A stretch of 15,828 nt of DNA, from IMG/VR virus record IMGVR_UViG_3300031997_002496; one strand, given 5' to 3'. Position numbers and translations under genes: made by a program. Positions 41 through 15,820 of the stretch are shown here, in pieces. This stretch comes from a virus. Position 1 is the first letter of the stretch; every line of letters begins with the position of its first letter. The notes below the pieces were generated by a model. The model was not told the origin of the DNA and did no database searches. It was given only the letters and a program-made list of their open reading frames with translations.

Positions 41-301
41 TTAGGCATCGCGTTTGTACTCCATCCTCTGATTCTCTTCCGCGACCAACTTCTCGAACTG
101 CTCGATCAACTTCTGCTTGTTTCCCTTAAGCCCGTACTCCTGCTTCACGCGGGTGAAGCACGAAGGACCTCGGGTCAGTTTCATGCCGGTCTTGAGCTCG
201 GTCTTCATCCCATGCAGCAGGGTGTTCATGCGAAAAAAATTGACTGCCTTCGGACCGTCGAACAACGTCGGCGTTCCGTCCTTCGTTACGCTGATAGTCA
301 A
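41..301 (-). CDS. hypothetical small protein (86 aa), Lys/Glu-rich C-terminus
   Basis: Minus-strand ORF with a TTG start at 301. A perfect AGGAGG Shine-Dalgarno lies 5 nt upstream on the minus strand (reverse complement of 306-311). The overlapping plus-strand frames look antisense-like (Leu/Ser/Pro-rich). No recognisable domain. Confidence 0.5.
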   Translation of the reverse strand: MTISVTKDGTPTLFDGPKAVNFFRMNTLLHGMKTELKTGMKLTRGPSCFTRVKQEYGLKGNKQKLIEQFEKLVAEENQRMEYKRDA

Positions 302-377
302 TGCAGCCTCCTTTGTGTGCAGGGGCTTATACCCAAATCACCCCGCTTTTACGGGTGGCCGGGCCTACACTTGGGGC

Positions 378-731
378 GTGAAGACGGTACTGGTAGTAGA
401 CGACGACACCCTCATACGGAGGCTCGTACATGACGCGCTGACCAAGCGTGGGGGCTACGCTGTGCTCGAAGCCGAGGACGGTGTGGACGGGGTAGCGCGC
501 TTTCTGCTGCACAGGCCTGACATCCTCATCACGGACATCTCGATGCCAAACAGCGACGGCTTGGAGATGCTCGACGTTCTCAAAAAAGGAAAGCTGCTCG
601 AAGGCGTCCGCGTCGTCATCATGTCCGGCGTGTTGAACACGGAGACGCTCCGCGCAAAAAATACCGGCGCCGCCGCGCTACTGAGTAAACCGTTCAACCT
701 TCAAGAGCTGTACGATGCCATTGGGGGATGA
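378..731 (+). CDS. single-domain response regulator (CheY-like receiver domain)
   Basis: The translation has the complete receiver signature: the acidic pair in VLVVDDD, the phospho-acceptor Asp in ILITDISMP, the Ser/Thr position in VVIMSG and the Lys-Pro in LSKPF. There is no output domain. GTG at 378 is the first plausible in-frame start, immediately before the domain. Upstream, the longer ORF from 117 runs into antisense-looking sequence. The GGGG just upstream is a weak SD, so the start is uncertain. Confidence 0.7.
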   Translation: MKTVLVVDDDTLIRRLVHDALTKRGGYAVLEAEDGVDGVARFLLHRPDILITDISMPNSDGLEMLDVLKKGKLLEGVRVVIMSGVLNTETLRAKNTGAAALLSKPFNLQELYDAIGG

Positions 732-734
732 GGC

Positions 735-1010
735 ATGCGTCGAACAAAGCGAGCAGGAATCGGGGAAGAGAAAGTGAAGAAGATTTCCGTCAAGCGACTC
801 CCCCGCAAGACCTCCTTCATTGTGCAGTACTCTGACGGACGTCGAGTAGAAACGTCGTACGTAGAGATCCAAGGAAATGCTACGCTCTACCTGGACCCTG
901 GAACGAAAGAGCCCGTCCTCCGGACAGAAGCAAACGTAAATCTCGGACACGCCACAGGAACCTGCGCGGTATGCGGGGGAGATACAGATGACCAACACGC
1001 CCATGCTTGA
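735..1010 (+). CDS. hypothetical protein (91 aa), translationally coupled to the response regulator
   Basis: ATG at 735 lies 4 nt after the TGA of the receiver gene, and the sequence GGGGGATGAGG sits upstream. The 3' end overlaps the SNF2 gene start by 23 nt. Basic N-terminus, C-terminal CAVCGG. No recognisable domain. Confidence 0.45.
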   Translation: MRRTKRAGIGEEKVKKISVKRLPRKTSFIVQYSDGRRVETSYVEIQGNATLYLDPGTKEPVLRTEANVNLGHATGTCAVCGGDTDDQHAHA

Positions 1011-3207
1011 CCGCTTCAAGATCGCCGCCAAGCAAAAGAAAGAAAAGAAGAAACCGGCGGAGCCGGAGTCCTTCAAATGGACAAGCGGCCCTGAGGAAAA
1101 AGAAGAGCCGGATGGTGCGGTCATGCGCGCCGCAAAGATGTTCGGTAAGGGTATGGGCGGGCTCGCCGCGGGAAATCTGGCAGCGACGCCTCTGGCCATA
1201 GGTACTTTCGCGCTGGACGACCGCCTCAAAGAGCAGAGGCCTGTAGGTACTCGGCAGATTGCCTCAGAGATGGGGCAGAAGATCGACAAGTATACGCACG
1301 GGGATCCTGGGGGCGGAGTCGGAGCGACCAGGGATGGGAAACTGGTTACGCTCATTCGTACGCGGCCAAAGGACTCAGAAGCCATCAAGGCGCACGAAGT
1401 GGGCCACGTCAAAAACGTTGAGATGGTTGGGAAGATGCCGTGGGGCCTCGCGCGAAGCGGCTCCGGAATGTTGACCAGTCTGAGTGGCCCCGCGGCGGGA
1501 GTCTATTCCGCCGTCGCCGACGACCCGTCGTACACCCCCTCGATGGTGCACCTCGGACTGAGCGCGCCGATCCTGTTGGACGAAGCTCTCGCATCTCTCC
1601 GAGCCCTGCATCACATGACTGGAAAGCATGGCCTCGGTACAGGGATGAAGCGGTCCCTCCCTCTGCTGCCAGCCTTTGGGTCGTATGCGGCGCAAGCCCT
1701 CGCACCGGCCGGAATCGTAGCGCTGCGCCGCTTCCTCAAAAAGAGGGAGGATGAAAAAAAAAAGACCAGCGGGGGAGTAGCCGAGAAAACGGCTAAGATC
1801 ACAACCAAGCTCAAGCCGCACCAACAGCGGGTCGTTGACCGCATGGAAGACGAAGACCAGCCGGGCATTGTGGCGGCCCATGGGTTGGGTTCCGGCAAAA
1901 CGCTGACAAGCCTGGCGGTGCAAGAGGCGCTCGGACTTCCTGCCGACATCGTAACACCTGCGGCCCTCCAGTCGAACTACCAAAAAGAGATCAAAGCTCA
2001 CACCACCAAGCATCCCGAAACACACATTCAAAGCTTGGAGGGCGTCGCTCGTACGGGCGGCTCGGGTCTCAAGAGCCCCTTCCTGGTGGTGGATGAAGCC
2101 CACCGTCTGCGAAATGCGGGCAAGGCTCGCACGGGGATCAAAGCTTCTCCAGCCAAGAAACGCCTCGCCCTCACCGGGTCCCTTCTCTACAACCACCCCT
2201 CCGACGTATCAGGCCCCATCAACATGGTAGCGGGGCGCTCCGTGCTTCCGGAGAACCCCGACGAATTCACTCAACGTTTCCTGCAAGACGTCCCCATGAG
2301 TCGCAGTCTCTGGGAACGTCTCCGGGGTACGCCCGCGTTCTATCAGACCCGTCTCAATCCAAAGTCGGTGGGGTCGCTCCAGGCAGCTCTCGACAAGTAC
2401 GTTGATTTTCACCCCGGTAGCACTGAGGACTTCCCGACGCGAGAAGACGCGACTGTCCGCGTACCGATGACCCGCGACCAGATGAAGCTGTACGAAAACG
2501 TTGGTAAGGATCAACCTGGCTGGCTGCGTCGGAAGGTTCTGATGAACCTCCCACCGACCAAAGCCGAAGCGAAACAGCTCAACGCTTTCCTCACCGGTGT
2601 CCGGCAGGTAGCCAACACAACGCAGGGATTTGACACCAGCGCCCACCCGGCGCACCAGCCGAAGATCGACCGAGCTGTGACAGAGCTGCAGAGCATGCTG
2701 GCGAAGAATCCTCGTGCGAAAGCAATCGTCTACTCGCACTACCTCGAATCAGGGATCGACCCGTACAAGAAGAAGCTTGAGGAACTCCACATCCCGCATG
2801 GTTCTTTCACCGGCGAGATGCCGCGCGCTGAACGGGACCGCATGGTGAAAGACTACAACTCCGGGAAGCTGAAAGCCCTGCTGCTCTCCAGCGCCGGCGG
2901 CGAAGGCTTGGACCTCAAGGGAACTCGCCTCATCCAACTCCTCGAGCCCCACTGGAATCAGGAGAAGCTGAAGCAGGTCATCGGTCGCGGCATCCGCTAC
3001 AAGAGCCACTCCGGCCTCCCCGAGAATGAGCGAAACGTCCTGGTGCAGCGGTACCTCGCAACGCGAGCTCCCTACGGAGCCATGGAGCGCCTGGGCCTAC
3101 GCAAGCCCGGCTACGGCGTAGATGAGTACCTCGATGAGATGGGCGCCCGTAAGGAGCAGCTGAACGAGCAGGTCCGGCGCATGCTGCGAGAGCCACAAAG
3201 TACTTGA
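988..3207 (+). CDS. SNF2-family helicase/ATPase with an N-terminal HExxH (zincin-like) domain; polyvalent-protein-like
   Basis: 739-aa ORF. GGGGAG sits 6 nt upstream of the ATG. The N-terminal ~260 aa contain AHEVGH (nt 1393-1407). A Lys-rich linker (KKREDEKKKTSGG) follows. The SNF2 N-domain motifs are present: GLGSGKT (Walker A), VVDEAHRLRN (DEAH box) and LALTGSLLYNHP. The helicase C-domain carries AIVYSHY...LLLSSAGGEGLDL...QVIGRGIRYKSH (motif VI). Confidence 0.85.
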   Translation: MTNTPMLDRFKIAAKQKKEKKKPAEPESFKWTSGPEEKEEPDGAVMRAAKMFGKGMGGLAAGNLAATPLAIGTFALDDRLKEQRPVGTRQIASEMGQKIDKYTHGDPGGGVGATRDGKLVTLIRTRPKDSEAIKAHEVGHVKNVEMVGKMPWGLARSGSGMLTSLSGPAAGVYSAVADDPSYTPSMVHLGLSAPILLDEALASLRALHHMTGKHGLGTGMKRSLPLLPAFGSYAAQALAPAGIVALRRFLKKREDEKKKTSGGVAEKTAKITTKLKPHQQRVVDRMEDEDQPGIVAAHGLGSGKTLTSLAVQEALGLPADIVTPAALQSNYQKEIKAHTTKHPETHIQSLEGVARTGGSGLKSPFLVVDEAHRLRNAGKARTGIKASPAKKRLALTGSLLYNHPSDVSGPINMVAGRSVLPENPDEFTQRFLQDVPMSRSLWERLRGTPAFYQTRLNPKSVGSLQAALDKYVDFHPGSTEDFPTREDATVRVPMTRDQMKLYENVGKDQPGWLRRKVLMNLPPTKAEAKQLNAFLTGVRQVANTTQGFDTSAHPAHQPKIDRAVTELQSMLAKNPRAKAIVYSHYLESGIDPYKKKLEELHIPHGSFTGEMPRAERDRMVKDYNSGKLKALLLSSAGGEGLDLKGTRLIQLLEPHWNQEKLKQVIGRGIRYKSHSGLPENERNVLVQRYLATRAPYGAMERLGLRKPGYGVDEYLDEMGARKEQLNEQVRRMLREPQST
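1754..1763 (+). repeat. A10 homopolymer containing an in-frame A_AAA_AAG slippery heptamer inside the SNF2 gene
   Basis: Ten consecutive A residues in a ~60% GC sequence. The main frame reads gaA AAA AAA AAG (E-K-K-K). This places the dnaX-type X_XXY_YYZ heptamer A_AAA_AAG (1758-1764) in the zero frame, exactly in the linker between the HExxH domain and the SNF2 domain. Confidence 0.6.
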
Positions 3208-3883: not shown

Positions 3884-4378
3884 ATGTTCGTCGTACTCGA
3901 TCTTGACCAGACCCTCGCTGACAATGCCCACCGCGCCCATCACGTAGAAAAGGAACCCAAGAACTGGGATGCGTTCTTTGCTCCGGACCTCGTCATCAAA
4001 GACACGGTCATCGTGGGCGCAGAACGTGTCCTCACCCACTTCAATGACTTGAAATACGACTTCGTCATCCTCACAGGACGTAACGAAGATCTCCGCGACA
4101 CGACCATGCGCTGGATCCAAGAGAAGCTGAGCATCACGGTGCTCGATACACACCTGCTCATGCGCCCCAACGGAAACATGCTCAACGCGGCGGAGTTCAA
4201 GCGGGAGCAGCTGCTCAACTTCAAGCAGGGGCTCGAGAATCGAGACAGCGACTTCATCATCATCGATGATGACTCCGCGGTAGGAGCGGCTCTGAGTTCT
4301 TTCGGTGTCGTCCTCAAGGCGCCGGAGTGCTGGCCTCTTCTTTTCCCGGTCCAGGAACCCGAGAAAATCGAAGAGTAG
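3884..4378 (+). CDS. HAD-superfamily phosphatase (polynucleotide 3'-phosphatase / 5'-nucleotidase-like)
   Basis: AAGGAG lies 8 nt upstream of the ATG. HAD motif I is VVLDLDQTL (DxDxT), motif II is VILTGR, a conserved Lys is present, and motif IV is IIIDDD. At 164 aa it is a cap-less minimal HAD, as in phage PNK phosphatase domains. Confidence 0.8.
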   Translation: MFVVLDLDQTLADNAHRAHHVEKEPKNWDAFFAPDLVIKDTVIVGAERVLTHFNDLKYDFVILTGRNEDLRDTTMRWIQEKLSITVLDTHLLMRPNGNMLNAAEFKREQLLNFKQGLENRDSDFIIIDDDSAVGAALSSFGVVLKAPECWPLLFPVQEPEKIEE

Positions 4379-4379
4379 C

Positions 4380-4392
4380 CCTATACTGGCGC
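4380..4392 (+). promoter_or_regulatory. CTATACTGG motif copy 5 nt upstream of ATG 4393 (possible -10 of a leaderless transcript)
   Basis: cccCTATACTGGcgcATG. No convincing -35. Confidence 0.2.
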
Positions 4393-5028
4393 ATGCCGCT
4401 CAACGGGGCATACTCCTGGAAAGAGGACAATCTCTCCCCCGACGAGCGGGTTGACCATTTTTTCAATTTGATTGATCACGCCGTCGAGAACGGAATTCCG
4501 CTAGCTGAGCTGTTCCACCGGAAGCACGTCAAAAGCTTCCTCCTCTATCTCTTGCAACGGTACGACGAGCCCTGTAAAACCTGCAACCTTCGCCCAACTA
4601 AAGGATCAACCACAATGCCCAAGCTGACTCTGACCAGTACGTTTGCCTCGTCCATCGTCATCGGTGATCCGGCCAACATCACCTTCACCTTGCTCCCCAA
4701 AGAGACGAAGTCCGTAGAAGTGACGGATGTCCAACTCCGCCAGCTCACCCCAGGCCTGGAGAAGCTCAAAGGAGCTGGCTGGCTGAACTACGTGGCAGGC
4801 GTCGCGGCTCCCGTCGCTGTCCCAGAGCCCGTCAAGGTGGTCGAAGACGTGAAGGTCGTCGCAGTGCCGGTGGCCCCGCCGCCCGCTCCTGAGCCCGTTG
4901 CCGCCCCTGAACCCGTAGCGGCCCCTGAGCCTGCCGCTGAGGAAGCCGCCGCCCCTGAGGCTCCCGTGGCGAAGGTGGAAGAGGCTCCGAAGCAGAACCT
5001 CTTCGACCGGAAGAATCGCAACCGCTAA
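4393..5028 (+). CDS. hypothetical protein with a C-terminal Pro/Ala-rich repeat region (possible virion/structural protein); an internal alternative start at 4615 is plausible
   Basis: Continuous frame. ATG 4393 has no SD but follows a CTATACTGG motif. In-frame ATG 4615 has AAAGGA 9 nt upstream and would yield a 137-aa protein (MPKLTLTSTF...). The C-terminus carries VAVPEPVKV...APEPVAAPEPVAAPEPAAEEAAAPEAP. Confidence 0.5.
   Translation: MPLNGAYSWKEDNLSPDERVDHFFNLIDHAVENGIPLAELFHRKHVKSFLLYLLQRYDEPCKTCNLRPTKGSTTMPKLTLTSTFASSIVIGDPANITFTLLPKETKSVEVTDVQLRQLTPGLEKLKGAGWLNYVAGVAAPVAVPEPVKVVEDVKVVAVPVAPPPAPEPVAAPEPVAAPEPAAEEAAAPEAPVAKVEEAPKQNLFDRKNRNR
4886..4960 (+). repeat. imperfect 18-bp tandem repeats (gcccctgaRcccgtWgcS, about 3.5 copies) encoding an (A/P)PEPVA linker
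   Basis: Direct reading: the copies are gctcctgagcccgttgcc, gcccctgaacccgtagcg and gcccctgagcctgccgct, plus a partial fourth. Confidence 0.6.
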
Positions 5029-5053: not shown

Positions 5054-5470
5054 ATGAGCCACCCTCTCGAGAATGCCTACTGGACCGGCCAGGTCGCGGC
5101 CTGTGAATCGTTTGGCGTCAAAGAAGCTGGAGTCCTCGGACAGATCGGCAAGTGGGGCGGCAAAGCCCTGCAATGGGGTGGGCGTGCCGCCGGAGTTGTA
5201 CCGGTCGCCGGTGAGGCCGTCGGCGCTATCGCTGGTGGCCTCGGCGGCGTGATGCAGGGCGCTGCCCAAGGTGAAGGCTGGAAGGGCATGGCCGCTCGCG
5301 GAGCGGCCGGTGCTGCCACTGGCGCGATGCCTCTCGGAGCTGGTCTGGTCGCTGGCGCTGCGAGTGATCTCGCGCTCGACAAGATGCTGGCGAAGAAACC
5401 CCCGGGGCCTCAGAACGCCCCAATGCCGGGGATGATGGGGCAGGGGCACCTTCCGGGGCATGCTGCGTGA
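5054..5470 (+). CDS. Gly/Ala-rich protein with glycine-zipper-like segments (138 aa)
   Basis: ATG 5054 is preceded by CTATACTcGGAGGc. The protein has GxxxG/AxxxA runs (AGEAVGAIAGGLGGVMQGAAQG, AAGAATGAMPLGAGLVAGAAS). Its stop overlaps the next start. Caveat: high GC alone can inflate Gly/Ala content. Confidence 0.5.
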   Translation: MSHPLENAYWTGQVAACESFGVKEAGVLGQIGKWGGKALQWGGRAAGVVPVAGEAVGAIAGGLGGVMQGAAQGEGWKGMAARGAAGAATGAMPLGAGLVAGAASDLALDKMLAKKPPGPQNAPMPGMMGQGHLPGHAA

Positions 5471-5952
5471 TGTCCCTCTCTCACCACGCATACAGCCTCG
5501 GAGCCTCGGACGCCAAAGTGGCGTTCTTTGGAGAGCTCTACGAGAAGCACATCAAAGGGGATCTTGGCCCCTTCGCGAGCGGTCTCTTCGTAGGGAGCCC
5601 TCTTAGTGCCGCGGCGGCAGGAGCCGCGGGACAAGCTCTCGACACGCCGGCTGGAGGATCAAAGATTCTCCGAAGTATCGGTGTCGGAGCCGGTGCAGCG
5701 GCGGCGAATAAGGTAGTTTCCCCTATCGCTAATTTCGTAGCCCATGCGGTAATGATGGGGCTCAACCCCATTCTGTATTCTTTGCCGGTGTTGGGATACC
5801 CGCCAGTCGCCGCGGCTATTTCGCAGCTGCTCGGAACCGCGATCCACGAGATTCCGACAGGTATCGCCCAGTCGTATGCTGCAACAAAGGGCCGAGCAGC
5901 GGCGCAACATCTTGAGAAGTTCCTACAGAAAAAGGACGTGAGGGTACCATGA
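5467..5952 (+). CDS. Gly/Ala-rich protein (161 aa)
   Basis: Its start overlaps the stop of the previous ORF, and its stop overlaps the next start in an ATGATG arrangement (translational coupling). Ala/Gly zipper segments. C-terminus is SYAATKGRAAAQHLEKFL. Confidence 0.5.
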   Translation: MMSLSHHAYSLGASDAKVAFFGELYEKHIKGDLGPFASGLFVGSPLSAAAAGAAGQALDTPAGGSKILRSIGVGAGAAAANKVVSPIANFVAHAVMMGLNPILYSLPVLGYPPVAAAISQLLGTAIHEIPTGIAQSYAATKGRAAAQHLEKFLQKKDVRVP

Positions 5953-6563
5953 TGACCAAAGAATGCACCTGCAAGGACGGCAAGAAAGATCCGAAGTGCA
6001 AGGCTTGCTCGAAGGGTGACGTCAACCTGGACAGCTTTCACCGCCTGAATCCTGAGGCCAAGCCCAAGACGGCTGGGCAGTTCAAGCTCGCCGGAGGGAA
6101 CCCCGGACTGTGGGGTGGGCTGAGTCAGGCCACCAAAGACCGCATCCTCAGCGCGGGCAAGGCGGGGCTCACCAGCGCCGTGCTGCCTGCGGCGGGCTCT
6201 GCGCTCGCAGCGGGTCTGGCGGCTGAACCGGGGCAGGGCTGGTCCGACGCGGCGAAGGCAGGGCTCGTGGGCGCAACGGCTGGCGGGCTTGCTGGCGCAG
6301 GACACCACCTCGGCATGACGGGGTCCAGCGACCTGGCGCACAGCTACCAGCGCGGCATCGGCGGCGACGTTCGAAACATGGGCAACTGGGGACGAGAGCA
6401 GATGGGACGCCCACTTCTGGCGCACCCCAACACCCCGCCACCGCCGAAAGTTGTTCCTGCTCCCGATGTGACGCCGACTCCCTCTGTCACCCCTGAAATT
6501 CCGAAGACGGGGATGTTCTACGAGTTCGGGAAGACCGCGGCGCTCTCTGCCTTCGCAATCTGA
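5949..6563 (+). CDS. Gly/Ala-rich protein (204 aa) with an N-terminal Cys cluster and a conserved C-terminal peptide
   Basis: ATGA overlap with the upstream gene. N-terminal CTCKDGKKDPKCKAC looks like a zinc knuckle. The middle is a Gly/Ala zipper, followed by a Pro-rich segment (PPPPKVVPAPDVTPTPSVTPEIP). The C-terminal peptide is FYEFGKTAALSAFAI. Confidence 0.55.
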   Translation: MMTKECTCKDGKKDPKCKACSKGDVNLDSFHRLNPEAKPKTAGQFKLAGGNPGLWGGLSQATKDRILSAGKAGLTSAVLPAAGSALAAGLAAEPGQGWSDAAKAGLVGATAGGLAGAGHHLGMTGSSDLAHSYQRGIGGDVRNMGNWGREQMGRPLLAHPNTPPPPKVVPAPDVTPTPSVTPEIPKTGMFYEFGKTAALSAFAI

Positions 6564-6570
6564 GACTCCC

Positions 6571-6756
6571 ATGCCTTTCAAAAGCGAAGCACAGCGCCGG
6601 CTGTTCCACGTGAAGGCTGACAAGGGAGAGATCTCCAAGGACACCGTGAGCGAGTGGGAGCACGCCACCAAGAACAAGAAGAAACTCCCAATGCACGTAA
6701 AGAAGTCCTACGAGCTTGGAAAACAGGCGGCGCTGAAAAGCTTTGCACTGAGGTGA
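6571..6756 (+). CDS. small Lys-rich protein (61 aa) ending in the same C-terminal peptide; in frame with, and one TGA away from, the next large ORF
   Basis: ATG at 6571, 8 nt after the upstream stop. C-terminus SYELGKQAALKSFALR. TGA at 6754-6756 is in the same frame as GTG 6760. Confidence 0.45.
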   Translation: MPFKSEAQRRLFHVKADKGEISKDTVSEWEHATKNKKKLPMHVKKSYELGKQAALKSFALR

Positions 6757-6759
6757 GCG

Positions 6760-9700
6760 GTGGGTGAGTACGACCGGGGAGCTCGAGCAGCGCTAGCCCT
6801 CTTCAGCAAGGAGGCCAATACCGGTGTGACCGCGGGCCACGTCAATCCTCTTCCGGTCGCAGGCAGCGGGTTCAATCAAGTAGCACAACAGGGAAATCCG
6901 ATGGCAGGACGGGTCGCCCACTCCCTCGTCGGTGGCGCCACTGGCGGAATTCTCAACGCGATGATGGCCCCCTCAGGGGACCGCATGCGGCAGGGGGCCA
7001 TTGGCTTTGCGTCAGACGCCATCGGAAGCGCCCTGGGCCCTTGGGGGATGATTGCCAGCCCCCTTCTGAACATGGGGCTCCAACAGCTGACATCCTCAAG
7101 TGGGGAAGAGAAGCGCGCTGACCACGCGGATGATCGGCTGAAAGAGCGAATCAAAACGGAGTTCCCGCCGGACACGCTGGCAAAACTCAGAGCACAAGCA
7201 AAAGAACTCGAGCTCGCTCCGGGACGGTACTACCTCCCGATGAAAGACAAGGCCGGGAACACAGCGGCAATTGCAGCGTTCAAGACCGTTGGCCCGAAGG
7301 ATCAGCTGGTACTGGCGACAGTTCTGAAACCCAAGAACAACCCTCCGTCAGGCACATCACTTTCGCACCTGATGAAGCAACCTCTCGGGTCCCAGATTGC
7401 CAAGGTGGATGCGTCCCCCAAGACATACACGATCCGCAAGAACGACGCAGGGCGCCTGACGTGCACCTGCAAGAGCTTCAAGTTCAACCACCGAGCGGCG
7501 GGCACGAACTGTAAGCACATCGACGAGCACCTTGGAAACACGAAGGAGTCTGCGAACCGGTTTGAGCAGTTCCTCCTCAACCAGGGTAACGTCAGCGATC
7601 CTCAGAAGACGCAACTCCGTGGACAGTTCGGACGGCTGACCCCTCGCCCGACGGCGAAGTCGAAGGCCCTCACCAGCCAAGCTTTGGCGCTGGAGCCTGG
7701 TCCGCAGCAAGCAGCGTCTCTGCGGTCCATGCGGACGTTGATGCAGACGCCGCACTACCCGGACAAAGACAGCCTCGAACGAACGCGCCGAATTCACGAG
7801 CTCTCCCTCACACCAAAGCTTCGAGCAATGGGCGGCAAGAGTCTTGACGCTCGGCGTGCTGCGGCGACCGACCCCACGTTCTTCTACGACGAGAAGAAAC
7901 GGTTCGCGACGCCAGGAGAGTACCAGGCCAAGTCGTTACGTCTCGGCGAAGAAACAGCTCCCACAGGGCTCCGGGCCGAACACGTTCTTCGCTCTGCGGC
8001 GGCAGGGAAACCCATCGAAACCAAGCTCTCCCCTGAAGCAGGGCGGCTGGTGATGTACCCAGACGCCTTGAAGGTGCAGCGTGAGCGCCTGAACAAGCAA
8101 CGCACCACCCCCGGCCAAACCAAACCCTGGGACCCCACCGACATGCGCCAGACCCTTGAGCACGAGGGGGCGGAGCGCAAGATGGTTCTCGAAGGCGTGC
8201 GCAGAGGCAAGCCGTCCACAGCGTACTCTTCGCACTGGGGCAGTGAGGCTGACGTCGCGGCGAACCAGGTCGCAGCCAAGGATCCCAAGAGTCAGTGGGT
8301 TCCAAACAACCCCGACTCCTTCATCGAGAAGGAACACTGGGACCGCCTCTACAAGCAGCACGGCGGGACTCGGGGACGCCCCATCCCGTCAGACAGTCGA
8401 GCTTCACGCAGCTTGGATAGATCAATCGCAGGCGTCATGGCGAAGACCCCCTTGACCGAGAAAACGCGGCCAGATCTCACAGCCGCCTTGGACGCAGGAG
8501 TCATGGGAATGCCTCTCCATCCGGAACTCGAAGCGCGTCTGAAGCGTGACTTCACCAAACTGAAGCCGGAGCTCGGTGAAACCTCCGCGCCCTGGGACGA
8601 CGCATCCCGGAGCCAAAAGGCTCTCGAAGTCCTGAAGAGTCGAACCCGGATGAAGACGTCCGCGGAAGGCGTGCGTCACTCTGGTGAACCCATCGACAAC
8701 CAGGAGGAGCCTCAGACCACGGAGGCTCCGATGCCTCCGCCTGAGAAGAAGAAGTCCTGGCTCCCTGCCTTGGGTACCGCGGCGGCGCTGGGACTTGGGA
8801 CGTACGGCCTCCTTCGCCGACCCTCGTTCTCTGCGAACCCCGCCCTGCGGAAAACACAGCAGTTGGCGGCGGAGAAAGGGTTCCACCGCATCGTTCCGGT
8901 GATGAAGTCCACAGATCTCCCAGACCCTGAGGCGGGGTTCCTGGGGCGGCTGCACCACAAGATTCAACCCAAAGTCGATGAGCAGGGCCGCATGAACTTG
9001 CTCAACCGCTTCAAGTTCTGGGCGCAGGAAGGCGGAGAAGCCGTCCCTATCGGGTACACGGACAAAGGGAAGGCGTTCATCCCCAACGGAGGGAAGCCGG
9101 TCAAGACTGAAGGCGTTGTCTTCGGTCGCCCCATGCTCGAGCCGAAGGAACGCAAACTTGTACGGGGTGGGGTGGACATCGAGGGGTCGGCGAAGACCCA
9201 ACGAGCCCTTACCGACATGGGGTTGAAGGGCAAGGGCATGGAAGCAACCCTCCTTCAGCGCCATTCCCCAGGAGCGGCGCCAAAGACGGTCGTCGATCTC
9301 TCCAAGTTCATGGCGCCTCCAAAGGGGAGAGAAACTTCGAACCAGCGGGTTGCGCGGATTCGCGAAATTCAGAAAGCAATGCAGGCAAAATTCAAAGGTA
9401 CGGAGATGGAAGACCACCTCCTCAAACCGACCCTTGGATTCAACTCCGGCGGGAAGTTCCCCATGAGCGGGGACGATTGGGGCAAACACCTCGCCAGGTT
9501 CGACAAAGCCATGGCAGATCCGGCGTTCAAGGCGAAATTTCAGAAAGCCACCCCCGACGAATTCGCCAACATGGTGTGGGACAAGAAGATTCTCGAGGGA
9601 CACACGCTCCACGAGATGCTGAAGAACCCGCAGTCGGCGATTGCTCAGCAGCAGATCCCCAACCGGCTTGGGGAGTGGCGCGTCAACGTTACCAAGGGTG

Positions 9701-10158
9701 AAGCCCCGTTGAGCATGATGGCGCCGCGTGGGGCTACCGACAACCCGATGGAGTCTCTCAAAGAACTGGCAACTGAGGGAGTAAGCCCCTTCAAGATCAA
9801 ACAGTTCGTTGAAGGCCACGTCCGAAAGCTTCCGAAGCACTACCGCGAAGGAACGTACGGCGCTGACGTGATGCCGTACTACACGCCTGAAGGGAAGCTG
9901 GACTACAAATTCGTCGAGCTCAACCCATCAGAGCGGGCGGGGTACCACGGTAGCGCCGGTGGCGGCTCAGGCTTCCTCGACGCCAGCAACATCCCCTGGG
10001 CGGGGCACGCACACTACCGCACGGCGACGGGCCGCCACACGACGCCAGTGGCTATGGCCGGAGGCTTGGCAGCGGCTGGGCTGGGCGGTATGGCGGCTCG
10101 AGCGCTGACGCCTGAGCAGAAGGATGAGGAAGAAGACGCCCCACATCCTGTGGGCTAA
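6760..10158 (+). CDS. very large protein (1132 aa) with a Gly/Ala-rich N-terminus, a SWIM-type zinc finger and one predicted TM helix; candidate internal virion / ejection protein
   Basis: Uninterrupted 3.4-kb frame. GTG 6760 has GAGGTG 4 nt upstream. ATG at 6901 (MAGRVAHS...) is an alternative start. A SWIM-like CxCx(n)CxH is present (LTCTCKSFKFNHRAAGTNCKH, nt ~7454-7520). A hydrophobic helix (SWLPALGTAAALGLGTYGLL, ~8754-8815) is also present. The N-terminal 16 aa repeat the peptide motif seen at the ends of the two preceding ORFs. Confidence 0.8.
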   Translation: MGEYDRGARAALALFSKEANTGVTAGHVNPLPVAGSGFNQVAQQGNPMAGRVAHSLVGGATGGILNAMMAPSGDRMRQGAIGFASDAIGSALGPWGMIASPLLNMGLQQLTSSSGEEKRADHADDRLKERIKTEFPPDTLAKLRAQAKELELAPGRYYLPMKDKAGNTAAIAAFKTVGPKDQLVLATVLKPKNNPPSGTSLSHLMKQPLGSQIAKVDASPKTYTIRKNDAGRLTCTCKSFKFNHRAAGTNCKHIDEHLGNTKESANRFEQFLLNQGNVSDPQKTQLRGQFGRLTPRPTAKSKALTSQALALEPGPQQAASLRSMRTLMQTPHYPDKDSLERTRRIHELSLTPKLRAMGGKSLDARRAAATDPTFFYDEKKRFATPGEYQAKSLRLGEETAPTGLRAEHVLRSAAAGKPIETKLSPEAGRLVMYPDALKVQRERLNKQRTTPGQTKPWDPTDMRQTLEHEGAERKMVLEGVRRGKPSTAYSSHWGSEADVAANQVAAKDPKSQWVPNNPDSFIEKEHWDRLYKQHGGTRGRPIPSDSRASRSLDRSIAGVMAKTPLTEKTRPDLTAALDAGVMGMPLHPELEARLKRDFTKLKPELGETSAPWDDASRSQKALEVLKSRTRMKTSAEGVRHSGEPIDNQEEPQTTEAPMPPPEKKKSWLPALGTAAALGLGTYGLLRRPSFSANPALRKTQQLAAEKGFHRIVPVMKSTDLPDPEAGFLGRLHHKIQPKVDEQGRMNLLNRFKFWAQEGGEAVPIGYTDKGKAFIPNGGKPVKTEGVVFGRPMLEPKERKLVRGGVDIEGSAKTQRALTDMGLKGKGMEATLLQRHSPGAAPKTVVDLSKFMAPPKGRETSNQRVARIREIQKAMQAKFKGTEMEDHLLKPTLGFNSGGKFPMSGDDWGKHLARFDKAMADPAFKAKFQKATPDEFANMVWDKKILEGHTLHEMLKNPQSAIAQQQIPNRLGEWRVNVTKGEAPLSMMAPRGATDNPMESLKELATEGVSPFKIKQFVEGHVRKLPKHYREGTYGADVMPYYTPEGKLDYKFVELNPSERAGYHGSAGGGSGFLDASNIPWAGHAHYRTATGRHTTPVAMAGGLAAAGLGGMAARALTPEQKDEEEDAPHPVG

Positions 10159-10188
10159 AAAACGCCCCCAGCTACGGGGGCGGTACTT
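10157..10188 (-). terminator. intrinsic terminator (7-bp GC stem plus U6) oriented for the minus strand, lying between convergent genes
   Basis: Plus strand reads aaaaaaCGCCCCCagctacGGGGGCGgtacttc. On the minus strand the transcript is CGCCCCC-guagcu-GGGGGCG followed directly by UUUUUU. On the plus strand the A-run precedes the stem and no U-tract follows it. Confidence 0.7.
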
Positions 10189-10613
10189 CACTGAGTCCTG
10201 ACAACCAGGCACCAGTTGGTCCAACGCTTACGGAATGCGTTGTGCGTCATCTTCGTTCCCAAGAGCCGGAGCGGCGCCGGGTCCGCCAGGTAGACGTACT
10301 TCGCGTCACAGCCGTGCACGACGCCGAAGTGGTCGCCGTCGAGATGAACAAGCAGCAGCTTCTCCTTCTTCAGCGCGGCTTGCAGCTCTCGGAATCGCAT
10401 GCGGTAGTTGTGCTGCACGTGAAGCTTTCGCTTGCGAAACGCTTTGATCATCGCATGTACTCGCGTGCCCTTTTCAGGGGTGCACCCAAGCTCACGCTTC
10501 AAGCGGCGGTACGGTGACCGGTCGCCGAAGTGATGAAGGATCATCGCTACAGAGTGCACTCCGCACGAATAGCTGTCGAGCTGAATGGATCTACGGAAAA
10601 CGGATATCGTCAC
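10188..10613 (-). CDS. standalone C39-like papain-fold cysteine peptidase domain (141 aa)
   Basis: GTG start with AGGAGG 6 nt upstream on the minus strand. Catalytic Cys context YSCGVHSVAMILHHFG matches the bacteriocin-processing C39 signature ([DE]CGxAxLAM(I/V)LxxxG). The His block is DHFGVVHG, followed by VYLADPA (the conserved DPA/Asp region). No ABC-transporter domains are attached. Confidence 0.7.
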   Translation of the reverse strand: MTISVFRRSIQLDSYSCGVHSVAMILHHFGDRSPYRRLKRELGCTPEKGTRVHAMIKAFRKRKLHVQHNYRMRFRELQAALKKEKLLLVHLDGDHFGVVHGCDAKYVYLADPAPLRLLGTKMTHNAFRKRWTNWCLVVRTQ

Positions 10614-14887: not shown

Positions 14888-15820
14888 TTAGCCCTGAATG
14901 CTGACCGTGGGCTTCGCCGTGCCATTACCCGGCACGACCGTACCCTGCGTCAGCTTCTGCATCAGAGGAGCGAGCGGCGTGTTGGCGAACACCTTCGACA
15001 GGGCGTCGGAGACGGAGTCTCCGCCGATTGCCTGCTGAATGCTCCAGGCCTTGGCGACCTGAACCATGGTGTCGTTGTTGCTGAGCGCCAGCAGCGCCTC
15101 GGAGAACCCGGCCTGCGCTGCGCCGAACTTCGAGACGATTGCTTCTGCTTCCGCCTTCATGCCGATGATGGCTTGGTCCTGCGCCATCTTCTTGAGGCCG
15201 AGCACCTGGTCCTGTGCCCGCTTCTGGCGGGACAGTTCCTGGTCGAACTCGAAATTCTTGAGTTCCTCAGCCGATGCTTCGAGGTCCTTTTGAGTCCCGA
15301 TCCGCTTCAGCTCGTTCGCCAGCTTGGCCATGACGACGGTGAGCTCAGAAGCTGCGAGCTCGGTGCTGAGCTCGTTCTTCCGCATCAGGGTGGCGGCGCG
15401 CACTTCAGCCTCCTCCTTGACGACGCTCTCCTTCTCCTTGGTGACCTCGAGGCCCCGCTTCAGCTGGGACAGCTCGATGTTGGTCTTGACCACCGCGAGG
15501 GCGCTCTGCTTGAACGTCCCTTCGATGGCCTGGTCCAGGCAGTCCACCGCCAAGACTTCGACGTCGGTGACGCGCATCCCGTTCTCCGGGAAGCTGCGGC
15601 CCTTCGCCTTGCCCGTGCCTTCCGGAGCCCCGAGCACCAGGCCCTGAAGAATCTCAGTGGCGTTGGGACGGAAGTCCTCGAAGCGGAGCTTCTTGACGGC
15701 GCCCTTCAGATCCGAGCGCATGCGGTCACAGAGGAACTTGACGTAGTTCTCCACGTTCCACCACTTCGAGCTGTCACCCTCGAAGTTCACCCGGTAGCCC
15801 AGGCGCAGGTTGAACTGCAC
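14888..15820 (-). CDS. SPFH/band-7 (flotillin/YqiK-like) protein, 5'-truncated by the window edge
   Basis: The frame stays open to the window end (…DYVQFNL), so the true start lies beyond 15828. The SPFH-like core includes MRVTDVEVLAVD. A long Ala/Glu-rich coiled-coil follows, with the flotillin-type KAEAEAIVSKFGAAQAG repeat and a C-terminal tail. The stop at 14888 is followed by the strong terminator. Confidence 0.5.
   Translation of the reverse strand: MQFNLRLGYRVNFEGDSSKWWNVENYVKFLCDRMRSDLKGAVKKLRFEDFRPNATEILQGLVLGAPEGTGKAKGRSFPENGMRVTDVEVLAVDCLDQAIEGTFKQSALAVVKTNIELSQLKRGLEVTKEKESVVKEEAEVRAATLMRKNELSTELAASELTVVMAKLANELKRIGTQKDLEASAEELKNFEFDQELSRQKRAQDQVLGLKKMAQDQAIIGMKAEAEAIVSKFGAAQAGFSEALLALSNNDTMVQVAKAWSIQQAIGGDSVSDALSKVFANTPLAPLMQKLTQGTVVPGNGTAKPTVSIQG

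Follow-up and report, generated by a model that had tools for sequence, protein, structure and literature searches.

We describe a short peptide motif, here called the tag, that recurs at the ends of five consecutive plus-strand open reading frames (ORFs 5054..5470, 5467..5952, 5949..6563, 6571..6756 and 6760..10158, which form a dense run) in IMG/VR record IMGVR_UViG_3300031997_002496, a 15,828-base stretch of viral DNA of 60% G+C that we call the window. IMG/VR membership and the holin, amidase, minor-tail-like protein and tailspike-type domain encoded on related contigs point to a tailed phage of 130–190 kb as the source of this DNA; the related IMG/VR contigs IMGVR_UViG_3300049844_000277 and IMGVR_UViG_3300037493_005727 measure 168 and 190 kb, respectively. 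The tag occurs on at least ten unrelated protein families across the phage clade, and we tentatively propose that it is a portable helix for protein–protein docking or targeting, attached to modules of polyvalent-type phage proteins, all of which would share a common partner. The window belongs to a 21-kb contig (L016) and was compared with syntenic relatives (L001–L010 and L016, drawn from contigs up to 190 kb) and with distant tag-bearing loci (L011, L012, L013 and L047), at a coverage of ~20 kb per genome.

The window holds five copies of the tag:

5075..5119, plus strand: tag copy 1, N-terminal AYWTGQVAACESFGV, residues 8–22 of ORF 5054..5470, found by both pattern and matrix scans at 17.4 bits

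5488..5532, plus strand: tag copy 2, N-terminal and diverged, AYSLGASDAKVAFFG, residues 8–22 of ORF 5467..5952, found by the loose pattern at 6.6 bits

6516..6560, plus strand: tag copy 3, C-terminal FYEFGKTAALSAFAI running up to the stop, residues 190–204 of ORF 5949..6563, Tyr codon at 6519

6706..6753, plus strand: tag copy 4, C-terminal SYELGKQAALKSFALR running up to the stop, residues 46–61 of ORF 6571..6756, Tyr codon at 6709, 13.6 bits

6766..6810, plus strand: tag copy 5, N-terminal EYDRGARAALALFSK, residues 3–17 of ORF 6760..10158, Tyr codon at 6769, 29.0 bits

In all six frames of the window, a loose pattern (Y-x-x-G-x-x-x-A-x-x-x-F) matched five times, each time at an end of one of these ORFs, compared with a mean of 0.055 and a maximum of 1 in 200 dinucleotide-preserving shuffles of the window. 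A strict pattern matched three times and never in 200 such shuffles, and a position matrix trained on other proteins (17 columns, from 48 tag instances in stand-alone homologues of the ATP-grasp module that ends ORF 6760..10158; cut-off 12 bits) gave four window matches of at least 12 bits against a shuffle mean of 0.07. The shuffles rule out a chance or low-complexity origin. A recent DNA repeat is likewise out, with a single pair of copies at 64–73% identity over 33–39 nucleotides and third positions near random. DNA identity was 64% for the copies with Tyr codons at 6519 and 6709, 36–51% for the other pairs and 15–46% at third positions; because identity is low in both respects, the similarity between copies must be kept at the protein level.

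A preliminary description of this DNA had reported three of these copies, and its placement proved exact, including EYDRGARAALALFSKE as residues 3–18 of ORF 6760..10158, the Tyr codons at 6519, 6709 and 6769 and the ORF termini. Its claim of selection on the protein is borne out by the low DNA and third-position identity, and its figure of ~65% DNA identity applies to one pair (64%, 6519 versus 6709) and not to the others. The weak fourth copy that it suspected at the end of ORF 5467..5952 (SYAATKGRAAAQHLEKFL) does not stand: it scores −3.5 bits, its spacing differs, and it is part of the conserved C-terminal helix of that family, which is another motif.

The tag follows the consensus (K)-(K)-A-Y-x-x-G-[AV]-x-x-A-L-x-x-[FY]-[GA]-[LIV] and spans 14–17 residues, with the following conservation:

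Tag position 1: Tyr or Phe in 43 of 44 instances

Tag position 4: Gly in 44 of 44 instances

Tag position 8: Ala in 41 of 44 instances

Tag position 9: Leu in 30 of 44 instances

Tag position 12: Phe or Tyr in 41 of 44 instances

On a helical wheel, positions 1, 4, 5, 8 and 12 fall inside a 100-degree arc and the remaining positions are polar. After position 12 come [Gly/Ala/Ser]-[aliphatic] and often Pro, a segment that reads as a helix cap. An AlphaFold2 model of P0031, a stand-alone homologue of the ATP-grasp module (mean predicted local distance difference test score, pLDDT, 89.3), places the tag inside a helix spanning residues 2–21 that is followed by coil, and a model of the 204-residue product of ORF 5949..6563 (mean pLDDT 60) shows low-confidence coil at 153–186 and then a terminal helix at 187–202. 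The tag is accordingly modelled, and here predicted, to be an amphipathic alpha-helix. In orthologue alignments the tag Tyr, Gly and Ala are invariant and the Pro/Ala/Glu-rich linkers vary; across syntenic loci L001–L010 and L016 the tag is kept in orthologues of the carriers, barring losses in L009 and L010 that are described below. A tag profile matched no Pfam family and no PDB chain.

A helix of this kind might bind membranes and anchor its carriers beside Gly/Ala-rich hydrophobic segments, and Gly/Ala-rich hydrophobic helices do lie near the tag in many carriers. The tag 14-mer, however, has an average net charge of −0.23 (44 instances) and a narrow hydrophobic stripe centred on Gly/Ala, in which it differs from cationic membrane-targeting helices, and several carriers have no hydrophobic segment at all. 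Moreover, protein P0178 is built as tag-like helix, SNF2, tag, hydrophobic helix and ATP-grasp, and this hydrophobic helix cannot simply span a membrane, because the flanking SNF2 and ATP-grasp domains both need ATP. We therefore hold a membrane-anchoring role to be extremely improbable.

The five carriers of the window differ widely in size and composition:

5054..5470, plus strand: 138-residue carrier in which a Gly/Ala-rich, glycine-zipper-like region comes after the N-terminal tag

5467..5952, plus strand: 161-residue carrier with an N-terminal tag and a conserved C-terminal helix unrelated to the tag motif

5949..6563, plus strand: 204-residue carrier with a Cys-rich N-terminus (CxC...CxxC), Gly/Ala-rich helices, a Pro-rich linker and a C-terminal tag

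6571..6756, plus strand: 61-residue carrier with a basic MPFKSEAQ-type domain of ~45 residues (6571..6705) and a C-terminal tag

6760..10158, plus strand: giant multidomain carrier of 1132 residues with the tag at its N-terminus and a domain order assigned by domain-wise matches

Key tag residues are conserved within the carrier families. ORF 5054..5470 is syntenic in L001, L002, L004, L006, L007, L009 and L010, and Tyr9, Gly12 and Ala16 of its tag are invariant across 8 orthologues. The diverged copy 2 retains invariant Tyr, Gly and Ala-Lys across 7 orthologues of ORF 5467..5952, and the L009 orthologue bears a canonical tag (17.7 bits). At the extreme C-terminus of the 204-residue protein, Tyr191, Gly194, Ala197 and Ala198 are invariant in 21 homologues, with a Pro-rich linker ahead of the tag that varies in both length and sequence. 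Copy 5 is conserved in giant-ORF homologues P0023, P0024, P0026, P0056, P0069 and P0072. The MPFKSEAQ-type domain of the 61-residue carrier also exists as tagless, stand-alone, very basic phage proteins of 40–70 residues in 29 IMG/VR loci (L018–L046); because this domain is widespread without any tag, the tag is an add-on in the present clade. The MPFKSEAQ-type family corresponds to phrog_1375, which has no assigned function, and is also found at the head of some proteins of 500–880 residues. Searches of Pfam, PHROGs and PDB sequence profiles gave no family for the small carriers, and ORF 5054..5470 matched neither Pfam nor PHROG. The carriers had been described as unrelated to one another, which is mostly so; the exceptions are a Gly/Ala-rich stretch common to ORFs 5054 and 5949, and the 61-residue and giant ORFs, which are one gene in some relatives.

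Scanning the window and 13 loci with the matrix, we obtained 52 matches of at least 12 bits, compared with ~1 in shuffled DNA and 6 in reversed translations. Among 51 non-redundant tags, 12 have a stop no more than 20 codons away, and 36 lie within 14 codons of a possible ATG/GTG/TTG start; the latter criterion is permissive and admits some internal copies, among them the ones in the fused ORFs of L001 and L007. By called starts, the tag Tyr falls at residue 3–9 in most carrier families and at residue 2–11 in most giant-ORF homologues. Three more carriers lie upstream of the window on its 21-kb contig, bringing that contig to eight. Further carriers across the clade include a ~330-residue protein with a weak PI3/PI4-kinase-like match, a 383-residue protein whose residues, judged by eye, resemble a permuted papain-like peptidase, and several Pro/Gly/Ser-rich proteins of 66–165 residues that are apparently disordered. 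The motif is thus plainly present in homologues across lineages, and its absence from them, raised in the preliminary description as grounds for rejecting a targeting role, is not what we found. The view of the carriers as Gly/Ala-rich internal or ejection proteins proved too narrow, since they also include an ATP-grasp ligase and kinase-like, peptidase-like and disordered proteins.

In other lineages (P0132, P0097, P0101, P0102 and P0083), a short helix of the form [SA]-F-[LFW]-D-E-L-x-K-I-A occupies the tag's slot, ahead of either a HADDRLKER-motif domain (described below) or a hydrophobic helix and ATP-grasp. This helix may be a second tag type. A viral-contig search with P0102, a stand-alone ATP-grasp relative that bears it, found none.

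Gene fusion and fission provided a further view of the tag as a movable unit. In the window, the 61-residue and giant ORFs lie in the same frame with one TGA between them, at the following junction:

6748..6762, plus strand: fission junction, with a Shine-Dalgarno-like GAGG overlapping the TGA, one codon, and the GTG start of the giant ORF

L004 and L006 share this layout (GAGG/GGAG, TGA, one codon, ATG/GTG), and we interpret it as a sign that two genuine ORFs are translated in a coupled manner. Given that the Shine-Dalgarno/stop/start layout is conserved in three lineages, neither a sequencing error nor read-through of the in-frame TGA is likely. The gene takes several forms among relatives. 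It is a single fused ORF in L001 and L007/L008, where one tag separates the MPFKSEAQ domain from the remainder; L002/L003 lack the small domain, and their giant ORF opens with the tag; and the window, L004/L005 and L006 have a split gene with a tag on each product. These make three of the four split lineages, the fourth being L009, in which the upstream product alone keeps it. Orthologues of ORFs 5467..5952 and 5949..6563 are themselves fused in L010, with loss of the N-terminal tag and retention of the C-terminal one, and the fused relatives P0034, P0056, P0072 and P0178 carry the tag at module boundaries. The preliminary description had allowed that its ORFs could be fragments of one gene with no terminal preference. 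The first part applies to the 61-residue and giant ORFs, which arose by fission of a gene whose fused form, in relatives, has an internal tag; terminal preference holds in all other families.

This pattern would also be expected if tags associate with one another, through a Gly-x-x-x-Ala zipper capped by aromatics, and so join separately encoded modules into a non-covalent polyvalent protein. The split lineages have a tag at the end of the upstream product and another at the start of the downstream one where fused relatives have a single tag, tags mark module boundaries in fused proteins, and the Gly4/Ala8 face is of the small-xxx-small kind that is typical of close helix packing. The docking domains of split polyketide and non-ribosomal peptide synthases offer a precedent, with a C-terminal element upstream and an N-terminal element downstream of the fission point. 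In the present case, however, a single motif supplies both elements, and most carriers are not split partners of one another. A helix of 14 residues is also short for stable pairing in water, the downstream product of the L009 split has no tag, and the many tagged stand-alone proteins without a fused counterpart would be left unexplained. Self-association is, in our judgement, distinctly unlikely.

The largest carrier, the giant ORF, is modular, as judged by domain-wise matches in an exhaustive search, and is followed by a convergent peptidase gene:

6760..10158, plus strand: giant ORF, in the order tag, Gly-rich region, HADDRLKER domain, SWIM zinc finger, middle domain, hydrophobic helix, ATP-grasp, second hydrophobic helix, acidic tail

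Nucleotides ~7108–7389, plus strand: HADDRLKER-motif domain of ~90 residues (residues ~117–210), with K-x-A-x-H-A-x-D-R-L-x-E-R-T

Nucleotides 7462–7518, plus strand: SWIM zinc finger (residues 235–253), matched in Pfam and PHROG

8746..10158, plus strand: C-terminal module, with a conserved hydrophobic helix (residues 663–691), an ATP-grasp ligase domain, a second hydrophobic helix (residues ~1095–1115) and an acidic tail

10188..10613, minus strand: Peptidase_C39 gene (PF03412, E = 7.6e-19), convergent with the giant ORF

The C-terminal domain (~470 residues) recurs in many diverged lineages as stand-alone proteins of 450–550 residues with 28–47% identity, most of which open with the tag, for example KKAFLDGAQAALRQYGILPEEE or MPPYDQGQQAALDQYGVDP. 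Foldseek top matches of the P0031 model, against PDB and viral models, were all ATP-grasp ligases, including Ddl, LysX, RimK, tubulin tyrosine ligase (TTL) and the graspetide macrocyclase MdnC; on this modelled structure, the domain has an ATP-grasp ligase fold. In relatives, SNF2 helicase, DNA ligase and peptidase domains are combined with these modules. Such shuffled module combinations are a hallmark of polyvalent proteins, and by their predicted domain content the giant ORF and its relatives would be of this type. The HADDRLKER-motif domain is widespread, alone or within many multidomain proteins, and gave no Pfam match and no significant match in a PDB profile search. The acidic tail (10120..10155) ends in PHPVG, a PHP[VA]G ending conserved in many homologues and, among the loci, confined to this protein. 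No cultured relative of the giant ORF was found among deposited phage genomes by tblastn, and a scan of species-representative bacterial genomes returned no relative of the ATP-grasp module; a locus search with a narrower alignment gained a single further viral contig.

The convergent ATP-grasp/C39 pair is present in every lineage examined (L002, L004, L007, L010, L011, L012, L013 and L047), with the Gln/Cys/His catalytic motifs of C39 conserved. The pairing of the ATP-grasp module and its two conserved hydrophobic helices with C39 is conserved in five diverged lineages. This linkage raises the possibility that the two enzymes recognize the tag as a helix of the leader or follower kind, which marks its carriers for ATP-dependent modification (cross-linking or carboxylate addition), proteolysis or both, as in precursors of ribosomally synthesized and post-translationally modified peptides (RiPPs), with the ligase's own tag acting in cis. 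A tagged ATP-grasp gene and a convergent C39 gene are adjacent in the window lineage, L011, L012, L013 and L047; by BLAST, ATP-grasp, C39 and a dCMP deaminase are the only genes common to the distant loci and the window lineage; and in L012 the C39 gene sits among tagged genes. C39 domains are known to bind amphipathic leader helices, and the Foldseek matches include the leader-guided macrocyclases MdnC and AMdnB and a RiPP ATP-grasp. A tagged family of 66–113 residues combines the tag with a precursor-core-like segment, a strongly conserved C-terminal DAGTGYATxGAQYGADxRK (L002 1786..2121, L004 2301..2642, L006 3312..3512 and L016 1728..2012). Encoded in a cluster with an ATP-grasp ligase and a C39 peptidase, this family resembles, by sequence, a modified-peptide precursor.

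RiPP leaders of graspetides and double-glycine peptides are likewise short conserved helices on neighbouring products in clusters with an ATP-grasp ligase and a C39 peptidase. Several features nevertheless separate the tag from them. No Gly-Gly, Gly-Ala or Gly-Ser, and hence no double-glycine site, lies at a fixed distance past the tag, where [GAS]-[LIVK] follows Phe12; the carriers include enzymes of 330–1132 residues; tags at the extreme C-terminus misfit leader geometry; and the ligase is itself tagged. Such a recognition role is in our view unlikely, though not far-fetched. Neither the C39 peptidase nor the major vault protein (MVP; see below) bears a tag itself.

We tentatively favour docking to a common partner, in which the tag would hang by a flexible linker on a free N- or C-terminus and would be left at the junction where modules fuse. 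The helix face, with aromatic ends (Tyr1 and Phe/Tyr12) and a small middle (Gly4 and Ala8), would pack against a partner helix or groove, and since one face would make this contact, all carriers would be brought to the same partner or assembly. The proteins gathered in this way would comprise the ATP-grasp module, the HADDRLKER domain with SWIM, and kinase-like, peptidase-like, Cys-rich, Gly-zipper, small basic and disordered proteins. Because the carriers are polyvalent-type, the most likely destination would be the virion interior or an ejection complex. The tag would then do for polyvalent-type effectors what MuF fusion does for classical polyvalent proteins; Pfam and PHROG scans of the window ORFs detected no MuF module. 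The preliminary description had suggested a terminal targeting or docking peptide, and this part is supported by the free termini, variable linkers, predicted helix, invariant face, occurrence on at least ten families and presence on both split products in three lineages. Its proposed destination fared less well, with no capsid, portal or shell gene tied to the motif.

Several observations weigh against docking to a single common partner. In the vicinity of the tagged genes we saw no capsid, portal or scaffold gene; their neighbours in the window (SNF2, PNKP phosphatase and DNA ligase) belong to replication and repair and include no structural module. The C39 peptidase is the sole gene consistently linked to a tagged gene, and this constant linkage favours the RiPP-like alternative. 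Distant lineages showed just 1–3 tagged genes per 20 kb. The split in L009 that left one tag indicates that the tag is not obligatory for every product. Finally, residues off the contact face are conserved by family (ALALFSK in the giant type and GAQxALRxYGIL in the ATP-grasp type), which suggests constraints beyond one common receptor.

Encapsulins, bacterial microcompartments and T4 internal proteins provide known cases of terminal address peptides, and comparison with each places the tag among them as a concept and apart from them in detail. Microcompartment encapsulation peptides are short amphipathic helices at the N- or C-terminus of several unrelated neighbouring proteins, joined by poorly conserved linkers; they follow another sequence pattern, and the tag differs in occurring in phage on multidomain polyvalent-type proteins. 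No microcompartment shell genes (BMC-H/BMC-P) were among the Pfam assignments of called genes in L016, L002, L004, L011–L013 and L047, which cover ~20 kb per genome. Encapsulin cargo-loading peptides share with the tag a conserved terminal peptide, a flexible tether and diverse cargo, whereas their consensus is of the Gly-Ser-Leu type and the tag is mostly N-terminal and forms a longer helix; the Pfam assignments of the tagged loci contained no encapsulin (HK97-fold) shell family. The capsid targeting sequence of T4 internal proteins, which are packaged and injected with DNA, is a short terminal signal on unrelated phage proteins, as is the tag. The T4 signal, however, is strictly N-terminal and is cut off by the prohead protease, whereas the tag is also found at C-termini (12 matches) and at junctions inside proteins; we identified neither a prohead protease in the loci nor a cleavage site. 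We know of no earlier account of an address peptide on the large, shuffled effector proteins of big phages.

Polyvalent proteins (Iyer et al. 2017, PMC5512222) resemble the giant ORF in their shuffled enzymatic modules in phage (ATP-grasp, SNF2, DNA ligase, peptidase and SWIM), and differ in having a known packaging module such as MuF, in place of which the proteins described here have a short tag at module boundaries. The words 'amphipathic', 'transmembrane' and 'glycine' do not occur in that article, and its two mentions of ATP-grasp concern RNA ligases. The concept of a terminal address tag is already known, this motif and phage clade are without description in the resources searched, and a tag of this kind at the module boundaries of polyvalent-type proteins appears to be undescribed.

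A gene with an MVP_shoulder domain (14888..15820, minus strand) runs off the end of the window. Full-length MVP homologues of 886–900 residues, with Vault, Vault_3 and MVP_shoulder domains, are encoded on the minus strand in L004 (16818..19499) and L010 (17236..19896). The closest non-phage homologues, at ~50% identity, are in metagenome-assembled genomes of Kofleriaceae (Myxococcota), among the best 120 of 5530 matches. This kinship is a hint that the host is a myxobacterium. Earlier work had already noted MVP homologues in phages and bacteria (bioRxiv 10.1101/2023.11.10.566534; 10.1101/872010).

The phage-encoded MVP could form a vault-like shell for which the tag would be the cargo-loading peptide, filling it with phage enzymes. 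In the window lineage, the full-length MVP gene is indeed syntenic with the tagged cluster and lies 5–9 kb downstream of it. Two MVP-bearing phage-like contigs (L014 and L015), however, have no credible tag within 10 kb of MVP. In addition, no MVP was seen in the 20-kb regions of the distant tag-bearing lineages, and eukaryotic vault cargo uses an interaction domain of ~160 residues instead of a short helix. We consider vault loading very improbable; if true, it would give vaults their first cargo-loading code and viruses their first protein compartment of this type.

Other genes of the window also show conserved features. The gene at 117..731 (plus strand), which precedes the SNF2 gene, encodes a stand-alone response-regulator receiver domain, and its synteny is conserved throughout the related phage loci. 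The SNF2 helicase itself (988..3207, plus strand) has 739 residues compared with 480–494 in relatives, and its extra N-terminal ~250 residues contain a metallopeptidase-like HEVGH (HExxH) motif and a Gly/Ala-rich segment. ORF 4327..5028 (plus strand) is conserved and carries C-terminal PAPEP/VAAPEP-like repeats whose run length differs among relatives; it had no tag and no family match.

In aggregate, our analysis defines a previously unannotated clade of 130–190 kb phages characterized by a tagged ATP-grasp ligase and a C39 peptidase, to which the window lineage adds a full-length vault protein. Because the tag is short, has a defined contact face and is carried by at least ten families, the docking hypothesis is directly testable. 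If true, the tag would provide an easy means to load foreign proteins into a phage assembly. These findings bear on how large phage effector proteins that have no MuF module are gathered or packaged.

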